DNA of 64,000 nt from Candidatus Dormibacteria bacterium (GTDB lineage: Bacteria; Chloroflexota; Dormibacteria; Aeolococcales; Bog-877). The DNA lies in the NCBI GenBank assembly GCA_050734135.1, contig JBOHUG010000039.1:4134-68133 (forward strand). The letters run 5' to 3'. This document shows positions 11,782 to 41,788 of the stretch, in pieces. The notes beneath the pieces were generated by a model, which was given only the letters and a program-made list of their open reading frames with translations, was not told where the DNA came from and did not search any database. Each line of letters opens with the position of its first letter. Position 1 is the first letter of the stretch. Made by a program: the position numbers and the translations under genes.

Positions 11782-13203
11782 TCACGAAGGCTGAATTGAG
11801 AACTCCGCTCGGAGCCGGGTGACGGCCTCCCGGGCGGCCACGGTGAGCTCCAGAGCCAATCGTCGATCCAGATCGAGTGAGGCGGTTGTCTCGAGCGACT
11901 GCAGGCGCACCTCAAGCAGCTGCAACTGGTCCGCGATCTCGCCGGGAGTCGCCAGGGCCCGGAGGCGGGCCGCGGCTGCGGGGGCGGTTTCGCCCAGCCG
12001 TTTCGCCCGCTGGTAGTCTCCGAACGCCCGGCGGTCGCGGTCGGCGGCGAGCAGCAGTCGTACCGCTGCTTGCCCGGACTCTGAGATCTCTGCTGCCGGC
12101 GCGTGCAGCCGGCAGAGCCCGTCCAGAGCCGCCGCGAGTGCGCCCGTGATCGCAGCCGCCGCCGCGCCACCCGCTGCGTCCCGCGGGGAGAGCATCCGGG
12201 CGACCGTCTCGAGCAGCGACCAGGAGGCGACCGGCCCTGGCTGCAGACCTCCGAGATCCGTCAGGGAGAGCAGAGCCGAAACTGAGGTGATACGGCCGAT
12301 TCCGCCCGGTACCGGCGTCACCCGGGCGGCGCCCGCCGCAGCGGCCGGGGTGACGTCGCCCCGGAGCTGCCCGTCGACCATCGAGGTGCCCACGTCGAGG
12401 ACTGTGGTACCGGGCAGGATCGCATTCGCGGGCATGACCCCGGCGATTCCGATGGCTGAGATCAATATGTCATAGGGGGGTAGTGGATCGACTCCAGCGA
12501 TGTCGCTCTGGATCACCGAGACCTGAGCTCCGGTGGCCAGGAGCCGCTGGGCGATCGGGCGACCGCCGGTCGGACCGTGGCCGACGACCAGAATTCTCGC
12601 TGCGGAGCAATCGATCCCAAGATGAACCAGGGTCGCGAGGCAGGCTTCGGCGACGGGGGTTCCGCGACGACGCCCGTCGGCTGCCGCTGCCAGGGCCGCC
12701 GGGGTGACGGCCTCGACGTCCTTGCTGGCAGGCAGGTGGGCGGCCACCACGCCACCGGGGAGTGATTTGACCGGCTGCACCACCACCACGCCGTTCACGG
12801 TGGGGTCCACCACCAGGGCATCGAGAGCGGTCGGGGTTGTCTCAGCTTGGTCCCGCGGCACGGTCCGGTGCACGACTTCCACGCCCCCGGCGACCGCTTC
12901 CCGTTCCAGGGACCGGGCGAACGAGCCCCCGGCGATGTTGCCCTCCTCGACCACTACTCCCAGTCGGTAGGGGCGCTGGCGCGCCTTCACGCGGCCCGCC
13001 AACCGCCCGCGCAGCTCCTCCAGGAGGGGAGAGAGGTTTACCACCTCGGCCGGGACCAGGTCCGTCACCGACCTATCTCGCGCGTCCTGAGCACTGGAGC
13101 GCCGGGGGAATCCGAGTGTCTCGTGGTCATCACCTCTCCACGACAGCCGATGGGCGGCGACGCCGCGCAGCCGCCCGGTGACGCCAACTAACTGCTGTAC
13201 CAC
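11782..13203 (-). CDS. FolD-like methylene-THF dehydrogenase/cyclohydrolase fused to a C-terminal formimino-THF cyclodeaminase/methenyl-THF cyclohydrolase (FTCD_C/FchA-like) domain
   Basis: N-terminal half aligns with FolD (NAD(P)-binding RILVVGHGPTGGRP, VTPVPGGIGRIT). The C-terminal ~180 aa match the cyclodeaminase fold (LSPRDAAGGAAAAAITGALAAAL). The true start may lie downstream of the first M. Confidence 0.7.
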   Translation of the reverse strand: MVQQLVGVTGRLRGVAAHRLSWRGDDHETLGFPRRSSAQDARDRSVTDLVPAEVVNLSPLLEELRGRLAGRVKARQRPYRLGVVVEEGNIAGGSFARSLEREAVAGGVEVVHRTVPRDQAETTPTALDALVVDPTVNGVVVVQPVKSLPGGVVAAHLPASKDVEAVTPAALAAAADGRRRGTPVAEACLATLVHLGIDCSAARILVVGHGPTGGRPIAQRLLATGAQVSVIQSDIAGVDPLPPYDILISAIGIAGVMPANAILPGTTVLDVGTSMVDGQLRGDVTPAAAAGAARVTPVPGGIGRITSVSALLSLTDLGGLQPGPVASWSLLETVARMLSPRDAAGGAAAAAITGALAAALDGLCRLHAPAAEISESGQAAVRLLLAADRDRRAFGDYQRAKRLGETAPAAAARLRALATPGEIADQLQLLEVRLQSLETTASLDLDRRLALELTVAAREAVTRLRAEFSIQPS

Positions 13204-13522
13204 CAGCCTGGTCGTACGGGCTCGACCGTATCAGGCGGAGTCAGCGCCTCGCTGCCAGTCCCCGGGCCGGGCCGGCCGGGAGGAGCTTTCCCGTTGCCCC
13301 CCGGCCCCGGGGAGTCGAACTGCAGGGGATCGTGTGGAAGTGCCAGAGGGAAGTGCGGAGCGCCGATCGGGCTCTCAGCACCTTCCCAGCCAAGGCGCGG
13401 CTGTTCCTCACCAACCGTCTGTCACACTACCCCCGCCGCCGGCGGCGGGATGGAGACGCACCGCACCCCGCGGCGATCCCGCTCGAGCCGCCCCGCGACA
13501 GGTGGATTTCAGGAGGTCCCCC

Positions 13523-14887
13523 TTGGTCGAGGTTCTAACCCTGGAGACCCCGGAACTCGGGGATCGCACCTATCTCGTCCACGATGGCGATCAGGGAATC
13601 GTCGTCGATCCCCAGCGAGATACCGACCGCGTGCTGGCGCTGGCCGACTCGGCCGGGGTCAAGATCAGTTGCGTGGCGGAGACCCACATCCACAACGACT
13701 ACGTGTCGGGGGGGTGGGCGCTGTCCCAGTCGGTAGGTGCCCGGTACCTGGTGGCCGCTGCCGACGATGTCTCATTTCAACGCCAATCGGTGAGCGAAGG
13801 GGATCGGATCGTTGTCGGCGGGCTCACCTTGAGGACACTGGCGACCCCCGGGCACACCCAGAGTCATCTCTCCTTTCTGCTCTCATCTGGAGGCGGACTC
13901 CGGGCCCTCTTCAGCGGAGGGTCGCTGCTCTATGGCGCCGTGGGCCGCACTGACCTGGTGGCGCCGGAACTCACAGAGCCGCTGGCCCGCGCCCAGCGCC
14001 GCTCAGCGCTCCGCCAGGTCGCCTTGCCGGCGGGCCTCGACCTCTACCCCACCCACGGATTTGGGAGCTTCTGTGCCAGCGGCACAAGCTCGGTGGCCGA
14101 CCCCGGTCACACGATTGGGACCCAGCGCACGACCAACCCTGCCGTGACCGGCGACGAGGAGGGCTTCGTCCGGGCGCTGTTGGCAGGGTACTCCCTCTAC
14201 CCGCGCTACTACGCTCACATGGGTGCTCTGAATCTGGAGGGGGCGGCTGCTCCCGAACTGGGGCTACCTCCGGAAATAGAGATCGCTGAAGTTGCCCGGC
14301 GGATCCGGAACGGGGAGTGGGTGGTCGATCTCCGGACTCGAACCGAGTTCGGGCCGTCCCACATCGTCGGCACGGTGAACTTCCCCACCGGCGAACTGCT
14401 GGCGACCTACGTGGGTTGGGTTGTCCCCTGGGGCGCTCCCCTGACTCTAGTCGGCAGTAGCGCGGAGGCGGTGAGCCGGGCTCGGCGTGATTTGGCTCGC
14501 ATCGGGATCGACTGGCTCGCCGGCTGGTCGAGTGCGCCCCTGGCGGAGCTGCAGGAGAGCCTGGGAAAGTCGTCGTACCGGGTGACCGACTTCCGGGGCC
14601 TGGCCGAGGCGGTGCGCTCCCAGGACGTCCAGATCCTCGATGCGCGTCGACCCGACGAGTGGCACGAGCGGCACATCAAGAACGCGATCAACATCCACCT
14701 ACCCGATCTGCCGACCCGGGTAGACGAGCTGCCCGAGCGACCCATCTGGGTGCACTGCGGCGCCGGCTACCGCGCCGCCGTAGCAGCCAGCCTGCTCGAT
14801 CGGGCGGGCCGCGAAGTGGTGCTGGTGGACGATGACATCGCTCGGCTCGGCGAGGTCGGTCTGGAATTGGTGAGTGGTTCGGAATAG
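13523..14887 (+). CDS. MBL-fold metallo-hydrolase (persulfide dioxygenase-like) fused to two rhodanese domains
   Basis: MBL motif ETHIHNDYVSGG...TPGHT is followed by two rhodanese domains. The first lacks the catalytic Cys. The second has active-site HCGAGYRA. TTG at 13523 sits 6 nt after a perfect AGGAGG. The upstream part of the track ORF overlaps the divergent gene. Confidence 0.75.
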   Translation: MVEVLTLETPELGDRTYLVHDGDQGIVVDPQRDTDRVLALADSAGVKISCVAETHIHNDYVSGGWALSQSVGARYLVAAADDVSFQRQSVSEGDRIVVGGLTLRTLATPGHTQSHLSFLLSSGGGLRALFSGGSLLYGAVGRTDLVAPELTEPLARAQRRSALRQVALPAGLDLYPTHGFGSFCASGTSSVADPGHTIGTQRTTNPAVTGDEEGFVRALLAGYSLYPRYYAHMGALNLEGAAAPELGLPPEIEIAEVARRIRNGEWVVDLRTRTEFGPSHIVGTVNFPTGELLATYVGWVVPWGAPLTLVGSSAEAVSRARRDLARIGIDWLAGWSSAPLAELQESLGKSSYRVTDFRGLAEAVRSQDVQILDARRPDEWHERHIKNAINIHLPDLPTRVDELPERPIWVHCGAGYRAAVAASLLDRAGREVVLVDDDIARLGEVGLELVSGSE

Positions 14888-14925
14888 CGTCCGGATCGGA
14901 CCCAATTCCGACCTATCATGACCTG

Positions 14926-15267
14926 ATGCCTGCCGACTGCCTGTTCTGCCGGATCGTGGCTGGGGAGTTGCCTTCCGACGAGGTTCACCGGGAACCGGGC
15001 ATTCTCGCCTTCAAGGACATCCACCCCGTCGCCGAGACCCATGTCCTGGTGATCCCCGAAAAGCACATCGAGGATTTGCGCCAACTGCGGGCGGAGGACG
15101 CCGGGCTCTGGCTCCGCCTAACCCAGGTGGCCAACGAGGTGGCGTCTGATCTGGGGCACGAGGAGGGCTACCGCTTCTATGTCAGTGTCGGCGCTGCCGG
15201 CGGGCAGACCGTGCCCCATCTTCATATCCACGTGATGGCTGGGAGCATGCGCCGCCTTCCATCCTGA
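14926..15267 (+). CDS. HIT-family hydrolase (histidine triad nucleotide-binding protein)
   Basis: 113 aa with HIT motif HLHIHVMAG and N-terminal CLFCRIV. Confidence 0.9.
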   Translation: MPADCLFCRIVAGELPSDEVHREPGILAFKDIHPVAETHVLVIPEKHIEDLRQLRAEDAGLWLRLTQVANEVASDLGHEEGYRFYVSVGAAGGQTVPHLHIHVMAGSMRRLPS

Positions 15268-15278
15268 TTCGTGTGCGG

Positions 15279-15315
15279 CCGCCTCGGGTATTGTTGGTAG
15301 GCGGGTCGGATTTTT
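15279..15315 (+). terminator. weak hairpin + T5 run between the HIT gene and the E1-like gene
   Basis: CCGCCT-14 nt-AGGCGG followed 6 nt later by TTTTT (15311-15315). T-runs are rare in this GC-rich sequence. Confidence 0.35.
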
Positions 15316-15348
15316 GGGCCCCGGTGTGGGCGCTGGAGTGCACTTCAG

Positions 15349-16542
15349 ATGGCGTTGAGTTCGCGGGAAATGGTCGACCAGGCCCGTCGGGTGGTTGCGG
15401 AGGTAGCGCCCCAGGAGCTGCGGGTGCGATTGGCCAGTGACGGACAGCGTCAGCTGCTCGACGTGCGCGAGCCGGAGGAGGTCGCCCAGGGGGTGATCCC
15501 AGAGGCCGTAGTAATTCCCCGAGGATTTCTTGAGCTGCGCGTGGAATCGGCGATTCCCGATCGGGCCACTCCGATCGCGGTGTACTGCGCCTCCGGAGTG
15601 CGGTCGCTCCTGGCGGCTAGGACACTGCACGCGATGGGGTATTCGGACGTGGTCTCCCTCCAGGGCGGCTACAACGCCTGGAAGGACCAGGGCCTTCCGG
15701 TCACCGTGCCGCACGCCTTCACTTCCGAGCAGCGCGAGCGGTACAGCCGGCACTTCCTCCTCAGCGAGGTGGGCGAAGCTGGTCAGGCCAAGCTGCTCGA
15801 CGCCAAGGTGCTCCTCCTGGGAGCCGGCGGCCTCGGCGCGCCCGTCGCCTATTACCTGGCTGCGGCAGGAGTGGGCACCATCGGACTGGTGGACTTCGAC
15901 CGGGTGGAGCTGAGCAATCTGCAGCGACAGATCGTCCACACCATGGACCGGCTGGGCATGCTCAAGACCGAGTCGGCGGCGATTGCCCTCAGGGCGCTGA
16001 ACCCGGACGTCAAGGTGATTGAGCACAACCTCCGCCTCGACAGCTCCAACGCGGCTGAGCTCTTCGCCCATTACGACATCATCGTGAACGGAAGCGACAA
16101 CTTCCCAACCCGTTACCTTGCCAACGACGTCGCGATTTTCTTGCGCAAGCCGCTGGTCGATGGCGGGATCTTCCGCTTCGAGGGTCAGGTCACGAGCATG
16201 CTCCCCTTCGAGTCGGCCTGCTACCGCTGCCGCTACCCGGCCCCCCCACCGCCTGAGGAGGCGCCCAGTTGCTCCGAGGCGGGCGTGCTCGGAGTTCTGC
16301 CGGGACTGGTCGGACTGGTCCAGGCCACCGAGGTGGTGAAGATGATCCTGGGCATCGGCGAGACATTGAGTGGGCGGCTGCTGCACGTCGATGCTCTGAC
16401 TATGGAGTTCAACACCTTCCGGCTGCGCCGGGACCCGGAGTGCCCGGTCTGCGGCGAGCATCCCTCGATCACCGAACCGATCGACTACGAAGGGTTCTGC
16501 CTCAACCCCAGCTTGACGGTATCGGCGGCAGCGGTAGCCTGA
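15349..16542 (+). CDS. E1-like ThiF/MoeB adenylyltransferase with N-terminal rhodanese domain (MoeZ-like, reversed domain order)
   Basis: N-terminal rhodanese with active-site YCASGVRS. Central ThiF fold with Gly-rich nucleotide loop LLLGAGGLGAPVAYYLAAAG. C-terminal CxxC...CxxC Zn motif (CYRC...CPVC). Confidence 0.85.
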   Translation: MALSSREMVDQARRVVAEVAPQELRVRLASDGQRQLLDVREPEEVAQGVIPEAVVIPRGFLELRVESAIPDRATPIAVYCASGVRSLLAARTLHAMGYSDVVSLQGGYNAWKDQGLPVTVPHAFTSEQRERYSRHFLLSEVGEAGQAKLLDAKVLLLGAGGLGAPVAYYLAAAGVGTIGLVDFDRVELSNLQRQIVHTMDRLGMLKTESAAIALRALNPDVKVIEHNLRLDSSNAAELFAHYDIIVNGSDNFPTRYLANDVAIFLRKPLVDGGIFRFEGQVTSMLPFESACYRCRYPAPPPPEEAPSCSEAGVLGVLPGLVGLVQATEVVKMILGIGETLSGRLLHVDALTMEFNTFRLRRDPECPVCGEHPSITEPIDYEGFCLNPSLTVSAAAVA

Positions 16543-16594
16543 ACCCCGGCCGGCCCGGGATGATTCGCCTCTGACTGGCGTCGAAAACCGGCGC

Positions 16595-16621
16595 TTGGAC
16601 TGGGTCAGGGTTGGGTAACAT
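16595..16621 (+). promoter_or_regulatory. sigma-70-like promoter candidate upstream of the 71-aa gene (leaderless)
   Basis: TTGGAC-15 nt-TAACAT. GTG start lies 6 nt downstream of the -10. No SD. Confidence 0.35.
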
Positions 16622-16627
16622 GAACCT

Positions 16628-16843
16628 GTGAAGCAGGCCACGATCTCGCTCGACGACCTCATTACGGCGGTCGAGACCGCGCGGGACAAGGTGATGGCTG
16701 ACGAGGTCCGCTCCCTGGTCAAGTTCGGCATCCCCAAGGCAATGGCCCAGCAGATGGTCGCAGCCCGGTTCCAGCAGAAGGTCGGAGGAGAAGAGGGCGA
16801 GGGAGGGGAGACTGAGACCCCGGCCTGGCCCGACATGAGCTGA
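16628..16843 (+). CDS. small hypothetical protein (71 aa) with internal KVGGE motif and acidic C-terminal tail
   Basis: Strong GC3 codon bias supports coding. GTG start has no SD. A promoter-like TTGGAC-15nt-TAACAT lies immediately upstream, consistent with a leaderless transcript. No recognised family. Confidence 0.5.
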   Translation: MKQATISLDDLITAVETARDKVMADEVRSLVKFGIPKAMAQQMVAARFQQKVGGEEGEGGETETPAWPDMS

Positions 16844-16861: not shown

Positions 16862-16880
16862 CCCGCTAGCTCCCGCTAGC
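16862..16880 (+). repeat. tandem direct repeat CCCGCTAGC x2, each containing palindrome GCTAGC
   Basis: Read directly in the 50-nt spacer between the 71-aa gene and the HExxH gene. Confidence 0.6.
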
Positions 16881-16893
16881 GGACAGGGGCACC

Positions 16894-17976
16894 GTGGAGG
16901 AATTGGCCCCCCTCAGCCCCTATCGCTCAGACCGGCAGTACGCTCGGCTGGAGACTTACCGGCGCTTGGGTTTGCCCGACGCCACCTGGGCGGCCGAGCA
17001 GTTCAGTCTGCGAATCCATGTCTCCCAGGACGGCCCGCCAGGCGGGGAGAAGCGGGCGCGCGAGGTCTGGGAGACGGTGGACCGACTCCCGCTCCAGGTC
17101 AAGGACGTCCTGCGAGGGGTGGTCGACGAGGTGCGGCTGGACCCCGAAGATAGGTTTCCCGTCGATACGCTGGGGACCTGGCGGGATGGAACCATGCGGC
17201 TCAACCGGGATTGGTCGCTGATCCCGGCGCTGCGCAGTGGGGGCTGGCACCGGGATCTTGGCTACGATTTGGTGCGAGCCACCTTGATCCACGAGTCCGG
17301 CCATGCCCTGGTCGAGGACCCGAGAGGCGGGGTCCGGCTCCGCGACACAGTCGCTCTGATCGCCGCGTCCGGCTGGTTACCGCACCCCCTTACCGACCCG
17401 GTGCCGTATGGAACTGTCGGCCGCCAGGTTTCCAATCTCACTGACTACTACCTGACTCGGCTACAGCAGCTCGATCCGAGTTGGGATAGCGAACTCTCCC
17501 TCGGTAGTCCGTCGCTGCCGCCGCCATCGCAGTTGGACCGTGATGTGATGCTGGAGGTGAGCACCTTCAACCGGCTGCGCACCAGGGACCGTGGTTCCCT
17601 GGGTCTGCAGGGACCGGACCAGCTGATCCGACACCTGCGCCGGGAGGAGCCGAACCGGATGAAAAGGGAACTGGCGGCTAGGGGCCTGGTGCTGGAGGAT
17701 GTAGACGCGACGTTGCGACGGCGCCGGGGCATCTCCCTGTATGCGGAAGTCGCCATCTCCGAGACGCCGGCGGAGATCTTCCGCTGCATCCACGCTCCCT
17801 TCACCAGGGCGGAGCACGGCCGCCCCGCCTTAGATGAGGGCGAGCGCGTGCTCTTGGAACCGTGGCGCACCGCGGACCGGGCGGTTGGGGCGCGCCGACT
17901 GGCGCTGGCCCCCGAGCGACCCTGGGAGGCGCTCCAGTTGGTCCGTCGGGGCGTCGGCCGGGAGCTCGGGAGGTGA
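16894..17976 (+). CDS. hypothetical HExxH-motif protein (putative zinc metallopeptidase-like)
   Basis: 360 aa, GC3-biased. Single LIHESGHALVED motif resembles zincin/SprT-type active sites. No other family recognised. Confidence 0.6.
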   Translation: MEELAPLSPYRSDRQYARLETYRRLGLPDATWAAEQFSLRIHVSQDGPPGGEKRAREVWETVDRLPLQVKDVLRGVVDEVRLDPEDRFPVDTLGTWRDGTMRLNRDWSLIPALRSGGWHRDLGYDLVRATLIHESGHALVEDPRGGVRLRDTVALIAASGWLPHPLTDPVPYGTVGRQVSNLTDYYLTRLQQLDPSWDSELSLGSPSLPPPSQLDRDVMLEVSTFNRLRTRDRGSLGLQGPDQLIRHLRREEPNRMKRELAARGLVLEDVDATLRRRRGISLYAEVAISETPAEIFRCIHAPFTRAEHGRPALDEGERVLLEPWRTADRAVGARRLALAPERPWEALQLVRRGVGRELGR

Positions 17977-18269
17977 CGGGGCTGGAGGAACGATTCCTGT
18001 TGCGGGAGATAAGCAGCGGACGGTCTGCCGAGGCGTGGGGCTTCCCAGTCCAACTCGCCGGTGACGCCGAGCTCTGCCAGCTGATCAGGGGGTATCTGAA
18101 CGATCCGATCGCGGAACTGGGTCCTTCGCTGGACCCGGAAACAGGGGAGCGCGGTACCAGAGTTCTGACCCTGGAGCCCGGCGATCCCGGCTGGCTCCAG
18201 GGCTGCCTGCGGCGATCCGCCCAGGAGCTCAAACTCCGCCTCAGCGAGCCCCCTCTCAGTGGCCGCTGA
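17972..18269 (+). CDS. small hypothetical protein (98 aa), translationally coupled to the HExxH protein
   Basis: GTG start overlaps the upstream TGA (GTGA). A GGAGG SD lies inside the upstream gene's 3' end. GC3-biased. Confidence 0.5.
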
Positions 18270-18348
18270 ATTGCCCCCCGCAAGGGGTTGTCCAGCCGTC
18301 GGCCAGCCACTATGTTTCTTGTCTCGGTAGCTAACACGGGGGCGCCAA

Positions 18349-18960
18349 GTGACCGGTTGGGGACGGTCGCGTCGGATCGCACTTATGGTGGGGTCGGGTT
18401 TGGTGGTGGTCTGGGCTGCCGCCTGCGCTAGTGCCCCCGCCAGGATTCCGGCTGCGTCACCGACGCCCACCGCGGCTCCCACCACGATCGCGCCCGGGGT
18501 GGCTGTGAATCCCTCGGAATTGATTCTGCCGCCTTATACCGTCTCGACCACGAATCCGCTGCCGGCGGGCGTCTCGGCCAAACGGGTGGTACGCGATGTC
18601 GTGGTGGATGACCTCATAGAGAATGCCGCTATCCAGAAACGCGATCCGACTCTGCTCACATACTCGGACTCGGGCAATCTCCTGCAGTCTGAACGACAGG
18701 AAATTGTAACCAACAAATCTGGGGGCATCACGGTCCTGAGCATCCGGGACTCCATCACCAACATTGAAGTGGGAAGCAAGGCCGATCCAAACAACTCGTC
18801 TGTTCAATCTGCAGCAATCGTGCAAGGCACAGAAGTACGCGAGCAGCGCATTCGCTCCGGCGTCCGTACTCGTAGTTCACACCAATTCCAAGTTCTCCTA
18901 TGGTTGGTGTGGTCGCAAGCTAACTTGCGGTATTTGCTGTGCGATACGGCCGACGCGTAA
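18349..18960 (+). CDS. putative lipoprotein, hypothetical
   Basis: Signal peptide with lipobox-like VVWAAAC. C-terminal ~40 aa fall in a low-GC patch and look aberrant. Confidence 0.45.
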   Translation: MTGWGRSRRIALMVGSGLVVVWAAACASAPARIPAASPTPTAAPTTIAPGVAVNPSELILPPYTVSTTNPLPAGVSAKRVVRDVVVDDLIENAAIQKRDPTLLTYSDSGNLLQSERQEIVTNKSGGITVLSIRDSITNIEVGSKADPNNSSVQSAAIVQGTEVREQRIRSGVRTRSSHQFQVLLWLVWSQANLRYLLCDTADA

Positions 18961-19886
18961 TTCTGCGCGTCCTCGTTGCGACGATTAGTCTTCCACTCGC
19001 CATATGTAGCGCTCATGCCGACTTTCCGGACACCCGCCCGACTGTCGGGTGCCAGGCATCTGCTGGTGAATTGACGTTCGGCGGGCAGTGCGTCGGCATC
19101 CAGGGGCCGTCGGCGCCCACACAACCTGCGCAGGGTCACAGCTGGATCGTGACGCCACCGACCGTCCAGGCGTCGTGTGCTCCGTACATCGCCACAGAGT
19201 GGGCCGCCGCTGCGGGGGTTGACAGCGGGAAAATCGGCGGCGCCGTGTGGACTGTGGACGGCCAGCGCATTCCTGTCATCTACTCAACGCCTTTGACCGA
19301 CTGGGGCTGGCGGTACGCGGTGACGTGCGGAACTCCGGGAGTCACCAGATTTGTTGGGTTGGTCTCTGAGCCGCGAACTCCGAGTCCTTGTTCAGCCCAA
19401 ACTGCCACGCAAGACTGTGTGCCCGGTCTCGATCCAAGCTCCTTCTTGGCTGCCGTAAAAGGTGAAGTTCCGCGGGAGAGCATCGAGGCCTCCCCTCGAA
19501 AGCTTGGCGTCGTCGGGGTTTCAGTCGGGGTCCAAGTGGTGCCCGCGCCAGAGCCCCAGTACGCGACGATCAACGTTGCGGTACCTGATGCTGGTGACGG
19601 AGATCCGGGAGAAACCCTTCATGTGGTGTGGGTCGTCGAGGCCGCACCGGAGTCCGTGTCGTGGACTTGGCCAGATGGGTCACGGTCCCAAATTAGCAAG
19701 TGGATCCCGCAGACTTACGAAGAGGGTGGTTTCGTGGGCGCAAGTCTCGTGTACGGCGTGACCGCAACCGGATTCTGGTCGGACGGGTTGACCGTCCATG
19801 ACCTTCCGACAGTTTCGGTGGGCACCATCCCAATCACGGCGCAGCTGGCATATTCCGTTGAGCAGGTCCAGCCCGGGTTGGGGTAG
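18939..19886 (+). CDS. secreted hypothetical protein
   Basis: N-terminal signal peptide (LVATISLPLAICSAHA). Cys-rich N-terminal region. No family recognised. Confidence 0.5.
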   Translation: MRYGRRVILRVLVATISLPLAICSAHADFPDTRPTVGCQASAGELTFGGQCVGIQGPSAPTQPAQGHSWIVTPPTVQASCAPYIATEWAAAAGVDSGKIGGAVWTVDGQRIPVIYSTPLTDWGWRYAVTCGTPGVTRFVGLVSEPRTPSPCSAQTATQDCVPGLDPSSFLAAVKGEVPRESIEASPRKLGVVGVSVGVQVVPAPEPQYATINVAVPDAGDGDPGETLHVVWVVEAAPESVSWTWPDGSRSQISKWIPQTYEEGGFVGASLVYGVTATGFWSDGLTVHDLPTVSVGTIPITAQLAYSVEQVQPGLG

Positions 19887-19935
19887 CCGGGGCGCTCCTT
19901 CGGGCGTTCGATAGACTGGGCGCCCGAGTCGGAGC

Positions 19936-20012
<77 letters not shown>

Positions 20013-20109
20013 CGCCGATAGACTTTCGGGGAACCGTCCCGGGCCGGCGGACCTACGGTCGGGACCCGCTGGGCGCCGACCATCGCCCAAATGCGATCCT
20101 TAGCCTCCA

Positions 20110-20931
20110 ATGCGTAACCCGGGCAGCAGAGAGCTCCGCCGCCGCCAGGCTCGACTGGAGAACCAGCAGCGATCCGCCGTCCGCGAGCAGACGCCGGCGC
20201 CGCGGCGCGCTGACATGATGCGCCGTGGTGGCCTACTCGAAGGGCTCGCACCCCGAGTTGTCACCCGGCTGACCCTGGCGGTCACGGTCGTCAGCCTGGT
20301 CATGATCGCGGCCGCCGTGTTAGGGCTGTTGGTGGAGATCGGCCAGCAGGATCTGCTCTTGGGGGTGGTGGTACTGCTGGTGGCCCTGGTCATCACGGGG
20401 ATTGTCGGGTCGGTAGTGGCCCCCGCCATGCGGGCCGCCCGCCGGGACCGCCGCCAGCCTGCGCGCAACATCCAAGGGCCGCTGATGGGCGCCAGTTTGG
20501 TCTCGCCGACCCCGGGGCTGGCCACGGTGGCAATCACCGTTGGCAAGAATGTGGAGCAGTTCAGGGTCCGCCCCGAACTCTTTGAGAAGCTTCGAGTGGG
20601 TGGGGCGACTGTGGTGGGGCTGACGGTGACTCCCAGCCTGAACTACGTCCAGGTGCTGAACATCATTCGCCGTGATCGGTTGGCCACCATGACCACCCCA
20701 CCCGTCTCCCGGGCGATCAGGATCTCGGTCTGGCTGCCCCTCTTCTCGGTCGGGGCGATCTCAGTAGCCCTGGCCCTGGGGTGCCTAATAGGCGCCCTGC
20801 TGCCGCTGGCGCACAGCGCCATCCATCCGCTCGTGACCGTGCTGCTAGCGATCCTTCTGGCGGGTGGTGTGGCGCTCTTCACCCGCTGGTACGGTGGTCG
20901 TCTTATCAAGGAGCTCGGACTCGAGCAGTAG
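20110..20931 (+). CDS. hypothetical integral membrane protein
   Basis: Multiple hydrophobic TM segments. Start uncertain (a later MMRRGG is possible). Confidence 0.55.
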   Translation: MRNPGSRELRRRQARLENQQRSAVREQTPAPRRADMMRRGGLLEGLAPRVVTRLTLAVTVVSLVMIAAAVLGLLVEIGQQDLLLGVVVLLVALVITGIVGSVVAPAMRAARRDRRQPARNIQGPLMGASLVSPTPGLATVAITVGKNVEQFRVRPELFEKLRVGGATVVGLTVTPSLNYVQVLNIIRRDRLATMTTPPVSRAIRISVWLPLFSVGAISVALALGCLIGALLPLAHSAIHPLVTVLLAILLAGGVALFTRWYGGRLIKELGLEQ

Positions 20932-28884: not shown

Positions 28885-29529
28885 TTGTCCGAGCTTCCCC
28901 TCTTTCCGCTGCGCGCCGTGCTGTATCCCCACATGTCGCTGCCCTTGCATGTCTTTGAATTGCGCTACCAGAGACTGCTGCGGGACTGCCTTGAGTCTGG
29001 TGGCCGCTTCGGGGTGGTCGGGATTCGCTCCGGCGACGAAGTCGGCGGTCGGGCGGTCCCGGAGGAGGTTGGCACCGAGGCGGTCATCACCGACCTTCGC
29101 CTTCTCCCCGGGGGCCGCTCCCACGTGCTGGTGACCGGCGCCCGCCGCTTCCGGATCAAAGAGCTGGTTCCGGGAATGCCCTACCCCAGAGCTGAGGTCG
29201 ATTTGCTCCACGAGCCGGACCCGGATCCGGCCGCCTTCATCCTGGCCAGTGAGGCACGTGCGGCCCTGACCCGCTACACCGCCGGGCTGGCCCGAATCTC
29301 GGGCGGAGCTGCCAGCTCGAACGCGCTGCCCACCGATCCGCTGCTGCTCTCCTGGGTGATTGCCTCCACTTTGATGATCGAGTTGCCCCACCGGCAACAG
29401 CTGTTGGAGGTGCCCGGGTTCAGTCAGAGGCTCCGTCTCGAGATCCAGTTGCTGCAGCGAGAGGTGACCCTCCTAAACCTACAGCTGGCGAATCGGCTCC
29501 AGACCGTCCCGACCTACGGCCGCAATTGA
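28885..29529 (+). CDS. LON N-terminal (substrate-binding) domain protein
   Basis: 214 aa with LPLFPLRAVLYPHMSLPLHVFE start typical of the Lon N-domain. No ATPase or protease domain. Confidence 0.7.
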   Translation: MSELPLFPLRAVLYPHMSLPLHVFELRYQRLLRDCLESGGRFGVVGIRSGDEVGGRAVPEEVGTEAVITDLRLLPGGRSHVLVTGARRFRIKELVPGMPYPRAEVDLLHEPDPDPAAFILASEARAALTRYTAGLARISGGAASSNALPTDPLLLSWVIASTLMIELPHRQQLLEVPGFSQRLRLEIQLLQREVTLLNLQLANRLQTVPTYGRN

Positions 29530-39726: not shown

Positions 39727-40602
39727 GTGCCAGGGTTCAAGACGCCCTCGCTCCCTCGCCGCGATCATGGGTGGATGGCAGGTGAGAGCAGTTCGGCCGG
39801 GAGACTCTTCCAGCCCGCCTCGGAACCGGTTGCGGTCGATCAGGTGCGGAGTTTCCTGCTGGCGCAGGGGTGGGCGGGTCTAGCCGCCGGGGAGCACCTA
39901 CGGCGGCTGGAGGCGGCCGGGGAGGCACCTAATCGCGTGCTCTGGTGGGTTCCCGGGCGAGCTGGCGAAGTTCGGGCAGCAGCGCTGCTGCACGAGGGGC
40001 TCCTCGGGATTCTGATTTCCTCCGGGGAGGAGGGATCGGCGGCGCTCGAGCTGCTCCGGGTCAACCGGGCGTCCATCGACCGAATCTCAGTGATGGATGG
40101 GCCGGTGCCGTACTCCGGGTTGGACGAGTTTACCCAGTACCGGCGTGAGCTCGCGGTCGCTACCAGGCTGCGATTCCCGACCGGCGACCTGCCCCCCACC
40201 CGGCTGGCCCGCAGTAGCGACGGAGAACAGCTCTTTCGGGTCTATCAGCACGTCAGCTGGATGAGCAAGGAGAGTCCTCAGGCTTGGCGGGAGCGAATTC
40301 AGGTGCAGCGGAGCTGGGTGGCGGAGCTGGAAGGCCAGGTGGTGGCGGCGGCCCGCTGGACGATGTCGTTCGGGCAGTGGGTGGAGGTCGGCGGGGTGGC
40401 GACCCATCCCGACTTCCGGCACCGGCAGGCTGGGTCGGCGGTCACCAGGGCGGCGGCGGCGGCGGCACTCGCCGAGGGACGTCAGGTGGTCCTTCGCTAC
40501 GGCGACCCCGCGCTGGCCAGCCTCTACCACCCACTCGGTTTCGAGCATGTCGGGCGGGAGATGGTGTTCTATCGGAAGAGCCGAGCCGAGCCAGACGTAT
40601 GA
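39727..40602 (+). CDS. GNAT-family N-acetyltransferase (putative)
   Basis: C-terminal acetyl-CoA-binding-like VEVGGVATHPDFRHRQAGSAVTRAAAAAAL. Confidence 0.55.
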   Translation: MPGFKTPSLPRRDHGWMAGESSSAGRLFQPASEPVAVDQVRSFLLAQGWAGLAAGEHLRRLEAAGEAPNRVLWWVPGRAGEVRAAALLHEGLLGILISSGEEGSAALELLRVNRASIDRISVMDGPVPYSGLDEFTQYRRELAVATRLRFPTGDLPPTRLARSSDGEQLFRVYQHVSWMSKESPQAWRERIQVQRSWVAELEGQVVAAARWTMSFGQWVEVGGVATHPDFRHRQAGSAVTRAAAAAALAEGRQVVLRYGDPALASLYHPLGFEHVGREMVFYRKSRAEPDV

Positions 40603-40610
40603 TCGCCAGA

Positions 40611-41788
40611 TGCCGGACCTAAAGTCGGTGCTGGCCTGGTCAGCGGTCGCGGCCGGGGTGGCCATCGCGGCGGAACGGCGGCTCTCCAAGTCTCTGGCAG
40701 ACCCGGAGGCGCCCGTGCTCGACTGGGAACTGGTACGGCGGACCGCCTACTCGCGTTGTGGCGGCGACGGCATGGCTGACGTGGAGGCGGCCGGCCGGGA
40801 CTATGACCCGCTGGTGGCCGAACTGGTCCCGATGCTGGCGGAGGCCTGCAACACCAGCCCCCAGGCGGCGACGTTCGGCCGGGTTCGCGTGGTCGGTCGG
40901 CACGGCTTCATCGACCAGAACCTGGCCATGATGCGGCGGATGCTGCGCCCTATTGAGGAGCGCCAGGGCGGCTGGGGAGCCATGCGTCCAAGCCCATTGA
41001 TGAGGGTTCCCAGCAGTCTCTACGTGGGCACCCTGCTTGGCTTCATGGCCCGGAGGGTGCTCGGCCAGTACGACCCGGTGCTTTCGGTGCCCTTTTCGGA
41101 CGGTAACCCGAGTGACCAGGATGAGGAATTGCCGGCTCCGGCGCTGATGATCGTGGAGCCCAACGTCCGCCACTTTTCCGAATCCTCGGAGCTGCCGCTC
41201 AATTCGCTTCGGCGGTGGCTGATGCTGCACGAGCTAACCCACGCCTGGCAGTTCGAGCTCCATCCCTGGCTCCGGGAATACCTAGGCTCGATGGTGGGTG
41301 AGCTGAGCCGGGCCCCTGGAGCCGGCAAGGGGCGGGGCCTGGAGGATCTGCTGCAAACGGCCCGCAGCATCCGGCCCCAGTTGATGCTGGTCGGAAAGGT
41401 GCAGGCGGTGATGACGGTCCTAGAGGGCCACGGAAACTACGTGATGCGTGAGGCCGGTCGGCGCCACTTCCCGGACTTCGACACCCTAGACGACGCCTTC
41501 CGTCGCCGCCACGATCCGCCGCAGGCGGCCGAGCGGCTCCTTCTCTGGATCTCGGGAGTCGCCTTCAAGCTGCAGCAGTATCAGCAGGGCGAGCGCTTCC
41601 TGAGGGAGGTCCGGAAGGCGGCTGGCCAGGCTGGCCTCGACCGCATTTGGTCCGGGCCGGAAAGTCTCCCTGGATGGACCGAGGTTCGCCACCCCGAGCA
41701 GTGGTTGCGCCGCACCGGCTTCATTCCCGTCGGCTCTGAGTCCGGGTCCGCGCCGGGACCAACCCAGCCGCAACCCGCCCCCGCCTAG
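40611..41788 (+). CDS. zinc-dependent metalloprotease (actinobacterial HExxH family)
   Basis: LMLHELTHAWQFE HExxH motif. Start at MPDLKSV. The upstream part of the track ORF overlaps the GNAT gene. Confidence 0.7.

Follow-up and report, generated by a model that had tools for sequence, protein, structure and literature searches.

The DNA analysed here, a 64,000-nucleotide stretch of a Candidatus Dormibacteria contig (henceforth the window), contains an open reading frame (ORF) for a small protein of 71 residues, VKQATISLDDLITAVETARDKVMADEVRSLVKFGIPKAMAQQMVAARFQQKVGGEEGEGGETETPAWPDMS, which runs on the forward strand from a GTG codon at 16628 to a TGA at 16841-16843. We propose, with a probability of roughly 0.6 for the account as a whole, that this is a real gene, confined to the candidate phylum Dormibacterota and transcribed as a leaderless mRNA, and that its product is a binding or adaptor protein made of a helical hairpin, a linker and a C-terminal WPDMS peptide, not a modifier of the Pup or ubiquitin-like (Ubl) kind. 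A protein of about 70 residues that is very strongly conserved across hundreds of species-level genomes, all but confined to a phylum without cultured members, with no relatives elsewhere and no annotation, would be a clear candidate for a housekeeping interaction module specific to this lineage, and of use as a marker of the phylum.

Judged from its composition and its relatives, the ORF is a genuine gene under strong purifying selection, since GC at the third codon position reaches 0.86, homologues fall into 66 clusters and occur in 327 species-level genomes, and the core is 80% identical across the family. In a window whose overall GC content is 66.6%, GC by codon position is 0.67/0.43/0.86, a pattern that matches the flanking genes with Pfam matches, and, because of an in-frame TAA at 16616-16618, translation can start only at the GTG. 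The 66 protein clusters came from a word-indexed search, in which every named one was a “Candidatus Dormibacteria” hypothetical protein, and the 327 genomes from a scan of one genome per GTDB species, of which the 80 fetched were almost all Dormibacterota metagenome-assembled genomes, apart from a few bins that evidently carry wrong labels. When 1.84 billion representative proteins were searched exhaustively with a HMMER profile of the family, no more than 37 were retrieved (representatives at 50% identity). As far as these searches reach, the small protein is confined to Dormibacterota and constitutes an orphan family: it had no match in Pfam (E <= 0.1), NCBIfam, PADLOC or PHROGs, and 40 aligned family members compared with Pfam at E <= 10 matched no Pup, ThiS/MoaD or helix-turn-helix (HTH) family. 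A profile search of the PDB with the family gave as its best match, at an insignificant E = 0.1, the HTH-like N-terminal domain of HIV-2 integrase, and no Foldseek match to the model of the small protein was better than E = 1.8 in the PDB or E = 0.37 in BFVD. A phage origin of the gene was rejected on the absence of a PHROGs match and on its housekeeping-gene context, and a 572-residue ORF on the opposite strand (15118-16836) was dismissed as the shadow, in a 67% GC genome, of the small gene and the adenylyltransferase gene upstream of it.

Conservation counts rest on 57 distinct homologues, 33 belonging to the clade of the window protein (the window clade) and 24 lying outside it. The AlphaFold2 (AF2) model built on the family alignment predicts one helix over residues 8-32, a G-I-P turn and a second helix over residues 37-53, with no strands; block means of the predicted local distance difference test (pLDDT) are 92-96 over residues 11-40 and below 50 over residues 53-64. 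In the first helix lies an almost invariant segment, E16 to V27 (ETARDKVMADEV), nine of whose twelve positions are identical in all 57 homologues, with T17, A24 and V27 varying in one to four sequences; its charged surface residues suggest a binding surface. Further invariant residues are K32, G34, P36, A40 and R47. Mean pairwise identity is 0.80 over residues 16-51, 0.49 over the first eight residues of the linker and 0.875 over the last five residues of the protein, and net charge goes from about +3 in the core to about -6 in the tail that begins at residue 52. Counted from residue 52 up to the final pentapeptide, the linker spans 13-15 residues in 54 of the 57 homologues, and its glycine content is 23%. 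Beyond it the protein ends in ...VGGEEGEGGETETPAWPDMS, and 45 of the 57 homologues end precisely in WPDMS, in two types of genomic context and in clades only about 55% identical overall. The tryptophan of this pentapeptide is present in every homologue, the ending is always W-x-[DE]-[MIV]-x, and the terminal residue is Ser or Gly. Of 14,337 ORFs in the fetched Dormibacterota loci, none of 50 or more residues outside this family shows the ending W-x-[DE]-[MIVL]-x.

This architecture suggests a non-enzymatic binding or adaptor protein. The product would be a small cytoplasmic protein composed of a two-helix hairpin of mildly basic charge, a linker that is acidic and disordered, and the C-terminal WPDMS; the hairpin would dock on a conserved cellular partner through the partly charged face of helix 1, possibly after dimerising into a four-helix bundle, and the tethered C-terminal peptide could either bind a second partner, in the manner of a short linear docking motif, or act intramolecularly as part of an autoinhibitory acidic tail. 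The same order of parts is known from bacterial SSB with its C-terminal tail and from the P1/P2 proteins of the ribosomal stalk, in which a flexible acidic linker joins the folded domain to a conserved docking tip. The small protein resembles the SSB tail (...DDDIPF) and the archaeal and eukaryotic P1/P2 in its folded N-terminal part, its acidic linker of 13-15 residues and its short conserved C-terminal tip of hydrophobic and acidic character, but has no sequence or fold relationship with them, and its WPDMS tip differs from the DPDDIPF in which the window’s own SSB ends. Another likeness is to Rop/Rom, a 63-residue RNA-binding helical hairpin, with which it shares a length of about 60-70 residues, two antiparallel helices, a tight turn and a short disordered C-terminus, although no sequence similarity between the two was detected and no Rop was among the Foldseek PDB matches.

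The likeness to Rop/Rom, a hairpin of comparable size and fold class, together with the opposite charges of core and tail, bears on a second reading, that of a small DNA- or RNA-binding protein in which the turn, K-[FL]-G-[ILV]-P-K...A..M, would be HTH-like and the acidic tail would act as an autoinhibitory mimic of nucleic acid. The sole PDB sequence match also speaks for it, the N-terminal domain of HIV-2 integrase being aligned over vksLvKlGiPkamAqqmv, but that match is not significant, Pfam offers no HTH family even at E = 10, only two helices are predicted, and no conserved palindrome was noticed in the gene’s own promoter, so that we regard nucleic-acid binding as rather unlikely.

Genomic contexts, established from tblastn searches of the window and 88 loci with reference neighbours as queries and from called genes for some of the loci, are of three types. 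In type A (the window and about 41 loci) a HIT gene, a gene for a rhodanese-ThiF adenylyltransferase of the E1 class (hereafter E1), the small gene and a gene for a protein with an HExxH motif follow one another, with rpsF-ssb-rpsR and PGDH further on. In types B and B′ (about 43 loci) the small gene is flanked by GcvPA and a VTT-domain gene, and a gene for an EF-G paralogue lies 1.8-6 kb away. In type C (three distinct loci) the EF-G paralogue gene is divergently adjacent, and on its downstream side come genes for an HTH_11 protein and an M24 peptidase and then rpsF-ssb-rpsR. Type A alone has the E1 and the HExxH protein as neighbours, both being absent from the 48 other loci among the roughly 90 contexts. 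Within the window clade the E1 lies no further than 4.2 kb upstream in 41 of 42 loci (the other, L015, has too little upstream sequence), with other genes standing between it and the small gene in at least six type-A loci (L006, L034, L035, L040, L041 and L043). This distribution marks the E1 and the HExxH protein as neighbours in one clade and not as conserved partners of the small protein.

A short element upstream of the start is kept across all these arrangements. In the window a TAACAT hexamer at 16616-16621 ends 6 nt before the GTG, with no purine-rich Shine-Dalgarno (SD) sequence in between; this is as the sequence-only reading had described it, as is the position of the ORF, and the suggestion made there of a leaderless mRNA gains strong support from comparison, since each of the 84 distinct upstream regions has a TANNNT hexamer shortly before the start, mostly with a gap of 6-8 nt. 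Its T1, A2 and T6 never change, and positions 3-5 vary freely, giving 12 hexamers in all, which is the signature of a -10 element and not of an SD sequence. The gap to the start is 6 nt in 43 regions, 7 in 20, 8 in six, 9 in two, 10-11 in three and 4 in ten, this last group being attributed to the script having taken a GTG that overlaps the ATG 3 nt downstream, which would put the true gap at 7. GGG, TGG or CGG precedes the hexamer in 79 of the 84 regions; an SD-like 4-mer appears in 17, and most of these we take to be AGGA within TAGGAT hexamers. The element persists across three unrelated upstream contexts with entirely different upstream genes. A gcTTGRgc block, common to many type-A upstream regions and absent from the other context types, coincides with a tentative -35-like TTGGAC in the window; a scan for consensus sigma-70 promoters called nothing at the small gene, TTGGAC included, and the evidence for TANNNT is comparative only. 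The small gene most likely has its own -10 hexamer, from which it would be transcribed as a leaderless mRNA. At four more window genes, at 14926 (+, HIT), 44372 (+), 57712 (-) and 10730 (-), a TANNNT likewise stands 6 nt before the first ATG or GTG, and leaderless organisation seems, from such spacing, ordinary for the source organism. Published work on Deinococcus and Actinobacteria describes TAnnnT promoters together with leaderless mRNAs that begin at AUG or GUG (PMC4007540 and further abstracts), and the comparison made here would be among the clearer sequence-only signs that TANNNT-driven leaderless mRNAs occur in Dormibacterota as well.

A different function had been proposed from the window sequence by itself, where the small protein was likened to Pup and to Ubl modifiers because of the segment VAARFQQKVGGE, residues 44-55 (given there as 45-55, one position off), which contains the first of two GG pairs, at 53-54, and is followed by a 17-residue tail (residues 55-71). 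That claim does not survive comparison, the GG being unconserved, profile similarity lacking and the WPDMS end being what such a modifier would discard; other parts of the same reading hold, namely that the protein is mostly helical and not of the beta-grasp fold, as the AF2 hairpin bears out, and that a second GG lies at 59-60. Its two neighbours, the E1 and the HExxH protein, are indeed present, with an adjacency restricted to one clade. GG at 53-54 is found in 20 of the 57 homologues, which amounts to 20 of the 33 in the window clade and none of the 24 outside it; elsewhere the pair is VG, AG, SG, TG, GT, GS, AS, VV, AA, EG, EA, EN, ES, ET, PG or GN. VG or AG occurs even where identity with the window protein is as high as 94-97%. 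Both GG sites differ between homologues that are as close to it as 85-97%, and also between those whose genes have the E1 gene as a neighbour, the second site being equally variable (GN, GS, SG, GT, GE, AP and others). Proteins of the window contain GG at 0.83 per 100 residues, so that about 0.6 would be expected in 71 residues, and GG[EQ] is present in 13 of 36 of them. By these comparisons the GG of the small protein is an unconserved chance feature, with G53-G54 probably capping the C-terminal end of helix 2 where the linker begins; an internal GG beside an E1 gene is not evidence for a modifier.

What a modifier would require here is a pro-form whose tail is cut at the GG, perhaps by the HExxH peptidase, and whose exposed glycine is then adenylated by the E1 and conjugated. 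The order E1, small gene, HExxH gene is kept in about 40 species-level genomes of the window clade; Wss1, a zincin protease, is the best structural neighbour of the HExxH protein (E = 0.12); and, besides the window-clade share of GG, G54 is present in 45 of the 57 homologues overall. Yet an activating glycine is expected to be invariant, and the observed variation disfavours a modifier: window-clade members with VV, AA, AS, GT or GS at 53-54 keep E1 and HExxH neighbours (type-A members with VV, AA or AG retain both), and outside the window clade no homologue has the GG or either neighbour. Nor would a pro-peptide be expected to have the tail’s best-conserved motif at its end, as this one does, which disfavours processing at the GG. 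The predicted fold is a helical hairpin without similarity to Pup, ThiS or MoaD, the adjacent E1 is an equivalog-level MoeB with a rhodanese domain, other genes have been inserted between it and the small gene in the six loci named above, and genes for an E2, a JAB protein, PafA or Dop are absent from the vicinity. With all this, conjugation of the small protein is barely credible, and we conclude that it is not a Pup- or ubiquitin-like modifier.

The likeness to Pup itself consists in small size (64 residues in Pup against 71), acidic stretches and the resemblance of RFQQKVGGE to Pup’s YVQKGGQ end. Pup, however, is intrinsically disordered, carries GG[QE] at its extreme C-terminus and has its gene together with those for PafA, Dop, Mpa and the proteasome (PMC8223512), whereas the small protein is predicted to be a helical hairpin disordered in its tail only, and its GGE is internal, at residues 53-55 of 71, with 15-22 further residues following in all homologues. 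Moreover, Pup is ligated by PafA, a glutamine-synthetase-like enzyme, and not by an E1 (PMC8223512), so that a Pup motif and an E1 neighbour were never parts of one mechanism. Searches with the Pup (PF05639) and ThiS/MoaD profiles, through which the sequence-only reading could be checked, matched neither the small protein nor other members of the family, and hhalign of the family profile against Mycobacterium tuberculosis Pup gave a probability of 1.5%, over a region other than that of the GG. No PafA, Dop, Mpa-type AAA unfoldase or proteasome subunit was found among the roughly 38 window ORFs scanned against Pfam, nor any Pup-pathway gene among the genes called around eight homologue loci. 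Genes for sulfur carriers often adjoin those for MoeB-type adenylyltransferases, and the position of the small gene beside such a gene in one clade recalls the ThiS/MoaD/CysO carriers and Ubls; the small protein is unlike them in having no beta-grasp in the AF2 model, no C-terminal GG, no PF02597 match and no conserved adjacency to an E1, and the window has no credible MoaD/ThiS-like ORF ending in GG.

Features of the small gene, its product and its immediate surroundings in the window, with the evidence on which each rests.
Feature	Position	Strand	Evidence
Rhodanese-ThiF adenylyltransferase (MoeB), upstream neighbour	15349..16542	+	PF00581 + PF00899
Weak -35-like TTGGAC, 15 nt upstream of the -10-like hexamer (tentative)	16595..16600	+	sequence inspection
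GGG + TAACAT, -10-type TANNNT hexamer	16613..16621	+	comparison of upstream regions
Coding sequence of the 71-residue small protein, GTG start, TGA stop	16628..16843	+	codon-position GC, homologues
Predicted two-helix hairpin, residues 8-53 (conserved part 16-51, net charge about +3)	16649..16786	+	AF2, pairwise identity
Almost invariant segment E16-V27, helix 1	16673..16708	+	alignment
G53-G54, first GG pair	16784..16789	+	residue comparison across homologues
Predicted disordered, acidic, E/G/A-rich linker, residues 55-66, with second GG (59-60)	16790..16825	+	pLDDT < 50 over 53-64
Conserved C-terminal pentapeptide W67-P-D-M-S71	16826..16840	+	pairwise identity 0.875, above core
8-bp GC-rich hairpin CCGCTAGC-tccc-GCTAGCGG, no U tract	16863..16882	+	folding vs shuffles
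360-residue HExxH protein, downstream neighbour	16894..17976	+	invariant motif, AF2, Foldseek

As for the E1, it scores 537.8 bits against the MoeB model NF006444 (cutoff 449) and at most 60 bits against defence-type E1-E2 models. Two further interpretations of the locus were considered and rejected. A precursor of a ribosomally synthesised and post-translationally modified peptide, of the microcin C type (small peptide with an E1-like enzyme, HIT protein and peptidase), was rejected on the equivalog-level assignment of the E1 to MoeB, on the phylum-wide occurrence of the small gene with changing neighbours, and on an end in Ser or Gly, not Asn. A defence system of the CBASS or Bil-like kind fares no better, PADLOC giving only weak Rossmann-region matches for the E1 and none for the small or HExxH proteins. 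The E1 gene also closes a sulfur-related run on the forward strand (13178-16542), which consists of a metallo-beta-lactamase-fold protein with two rhodanese domains (13178-14887), the HIT protein (14926-15267) and the MoeB with its N-terminal rhodanese domain.

The HExxH protein downstream has no Pfam or NCBIfam match and is represented by 45 homologue clusters, of 347-367 residues and at least 38% identity, almost all labelled Dormibacteria or unnamed. H133, E134, G136, H137 and D142 are invariant in 27 sequences, giving the motif HE[SCA]GHAL..ED. The top Foldseek neighbours of its AF2 model (pLDDT 88) are all zincins (Wss1, anthrax lethal factor, PPEP-3 and ERAP1), at non-significant values of E >= 0.12 and template-modelling (TM) score <= 0.5. 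Motif and model together suggest that it is probably a novel zincin-like metallopeptidase, and possibly the representative of a new family of such peptidases. In the window clade the small protein might be co-transcribed with it and serve as its inhibitor, chaperone or substrate. At nearly all window-clade loci the HExxH gene starts about 260-375 nt after the start of the small gene, with a gap of about 50-150 nt after its stop, and this tight adjacency has been kept over about 40 species despite divergence of the HExxH protein to 38-45% identity. As a terminator, the hairpin that separates the two genes is unconvincing: its z score is -1.9, with 9 of 200 shuffled sequences folding equally well, which is not significant, and hairpins occur downstream of the small gene in other loci too, as expected at such GC content. 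An intrinsic terminator after the small gene was accordingly rejected, the hairpin being insignificant and the scan having called no terminator there. Nevertheless, the small protein is equally conserved in the half or so of the family’s genomes that have no HExxH homologue nearby, and, with the 45 HExxH clusters presumably belonging to the window clade, its core function cannot depend on the HExxH protein. A role as an accessory of this peptidase is therefore, in our estimate, quite unlikely.

Outside the window clade the recurrent neighbour is instead the EF-G paralogue, present within 6.1 kb in 40 of the 48 loci (NF009381, 830 bits). Its genes (L002 3784-5808 (-), L001 8674-10752 (+) and L007 1-1953 (-)) score above the NF009381 cutoff and below that of the canonical TIGR00484. 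The small protein could be a translation-associated factor, a partner of the EF-G paralogue or of the ribosome, to which it would present its C-terminal peptide by way of the flexible acidic linker. The two genes have stayed associated through at least three rearrangements and are divergently adjacent in the type-C loci, rpsF-ssb-rpsR lies 3.4-7.5 kb downstream in types A and C, and the folded N-terminal domain, acidic linker and hydrophobic C-terminal tip match those of stalk proteins. In archaea and eukaryotes the P-stalk tails, and in bacteria the C-terminal domain of bL12, recruit translational GTPases. On the other hand, there is no EF-G gene within 10 kb in about 42 window-clade loci, nor anywhere in the 64-kb window, and loci L051 and L072 are likewise without the paralogue; the loci are closely related, so that the counts stand for few independent events. 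A by-eye likeness to the N-terminal domain of bL12 (...IxAV...KFG[VI]...) was rejected, hhalign against Escherichia coli bL12 giving a probability of 0.3%. We hold a role in translation to be an improbable explanation. A narrower version, drawn from the gene neighbourhood outside the window clade and from the architecture, would make the small protein the founding member of a phylum-specific group of tethered-peptide adaptors, its hairpin presenting WPDMS to the EF-G paralogue as the ancestral divergent neighbour; this is a long shot, which if true would provide a bacterial functional analogue of the P-stalk tail.

Several points weigh against the account preferred here, that of a leaderless gene for an adaptor unrelated to modifiers. 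G54, taken singly, is kept fairly well among the homologues, a retention attributed to a helix C-cap or linker glycine. The gaps of 10-11 nt belong to three type-C loci, where they would mean a very short leader instead of none, and the persistence of the HExxH gene beside the small gene in the window clade must also be counted. The putative adaptor and docking-motif mechanism is drawn from the architecture, and a two-helix hairpin is too simple to be diagnostic, so that structural searches cannot exclude kinship with a known helical family.

Some apparent relatives of the small protein and some other features of the window complete the description. Long “fusion” homologues (P0067, P0068, P0094, P0097 and P0099, the longest listed ones having been inspected) were judged to be antisense read-throughs, frameshifts or chance matches. 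In type-C loci the HTH_11-type regulator that follows the small gene is itself small (L002 6287-6676), and two metagenomic predictions, P0069 and P0082, join it with the small protein, one in each order; they are probably a stop-codon read-through and an assembly artefact. Downstream of the HExxH gene the coding signal is weak over about 2 kb (17976-20110), with overlapping ORFs of third-position GC 0.66-0.76 and a dip in GC content to 0.53-0.55 at about 18600-19050; a tRNA-Val(CAC) gene at 19936-20012 closes this stretch, and the homologous stretch of L006 holds several small unannotated ORFs. Unrelated to the small gene are a stand-alone protein with a Lon substrate-binding domain, encoded at 28885-29529 (+), and a Zincin_2 (PF10103) metallopeptidase-like protein, encoded at 40547-41788 (+).

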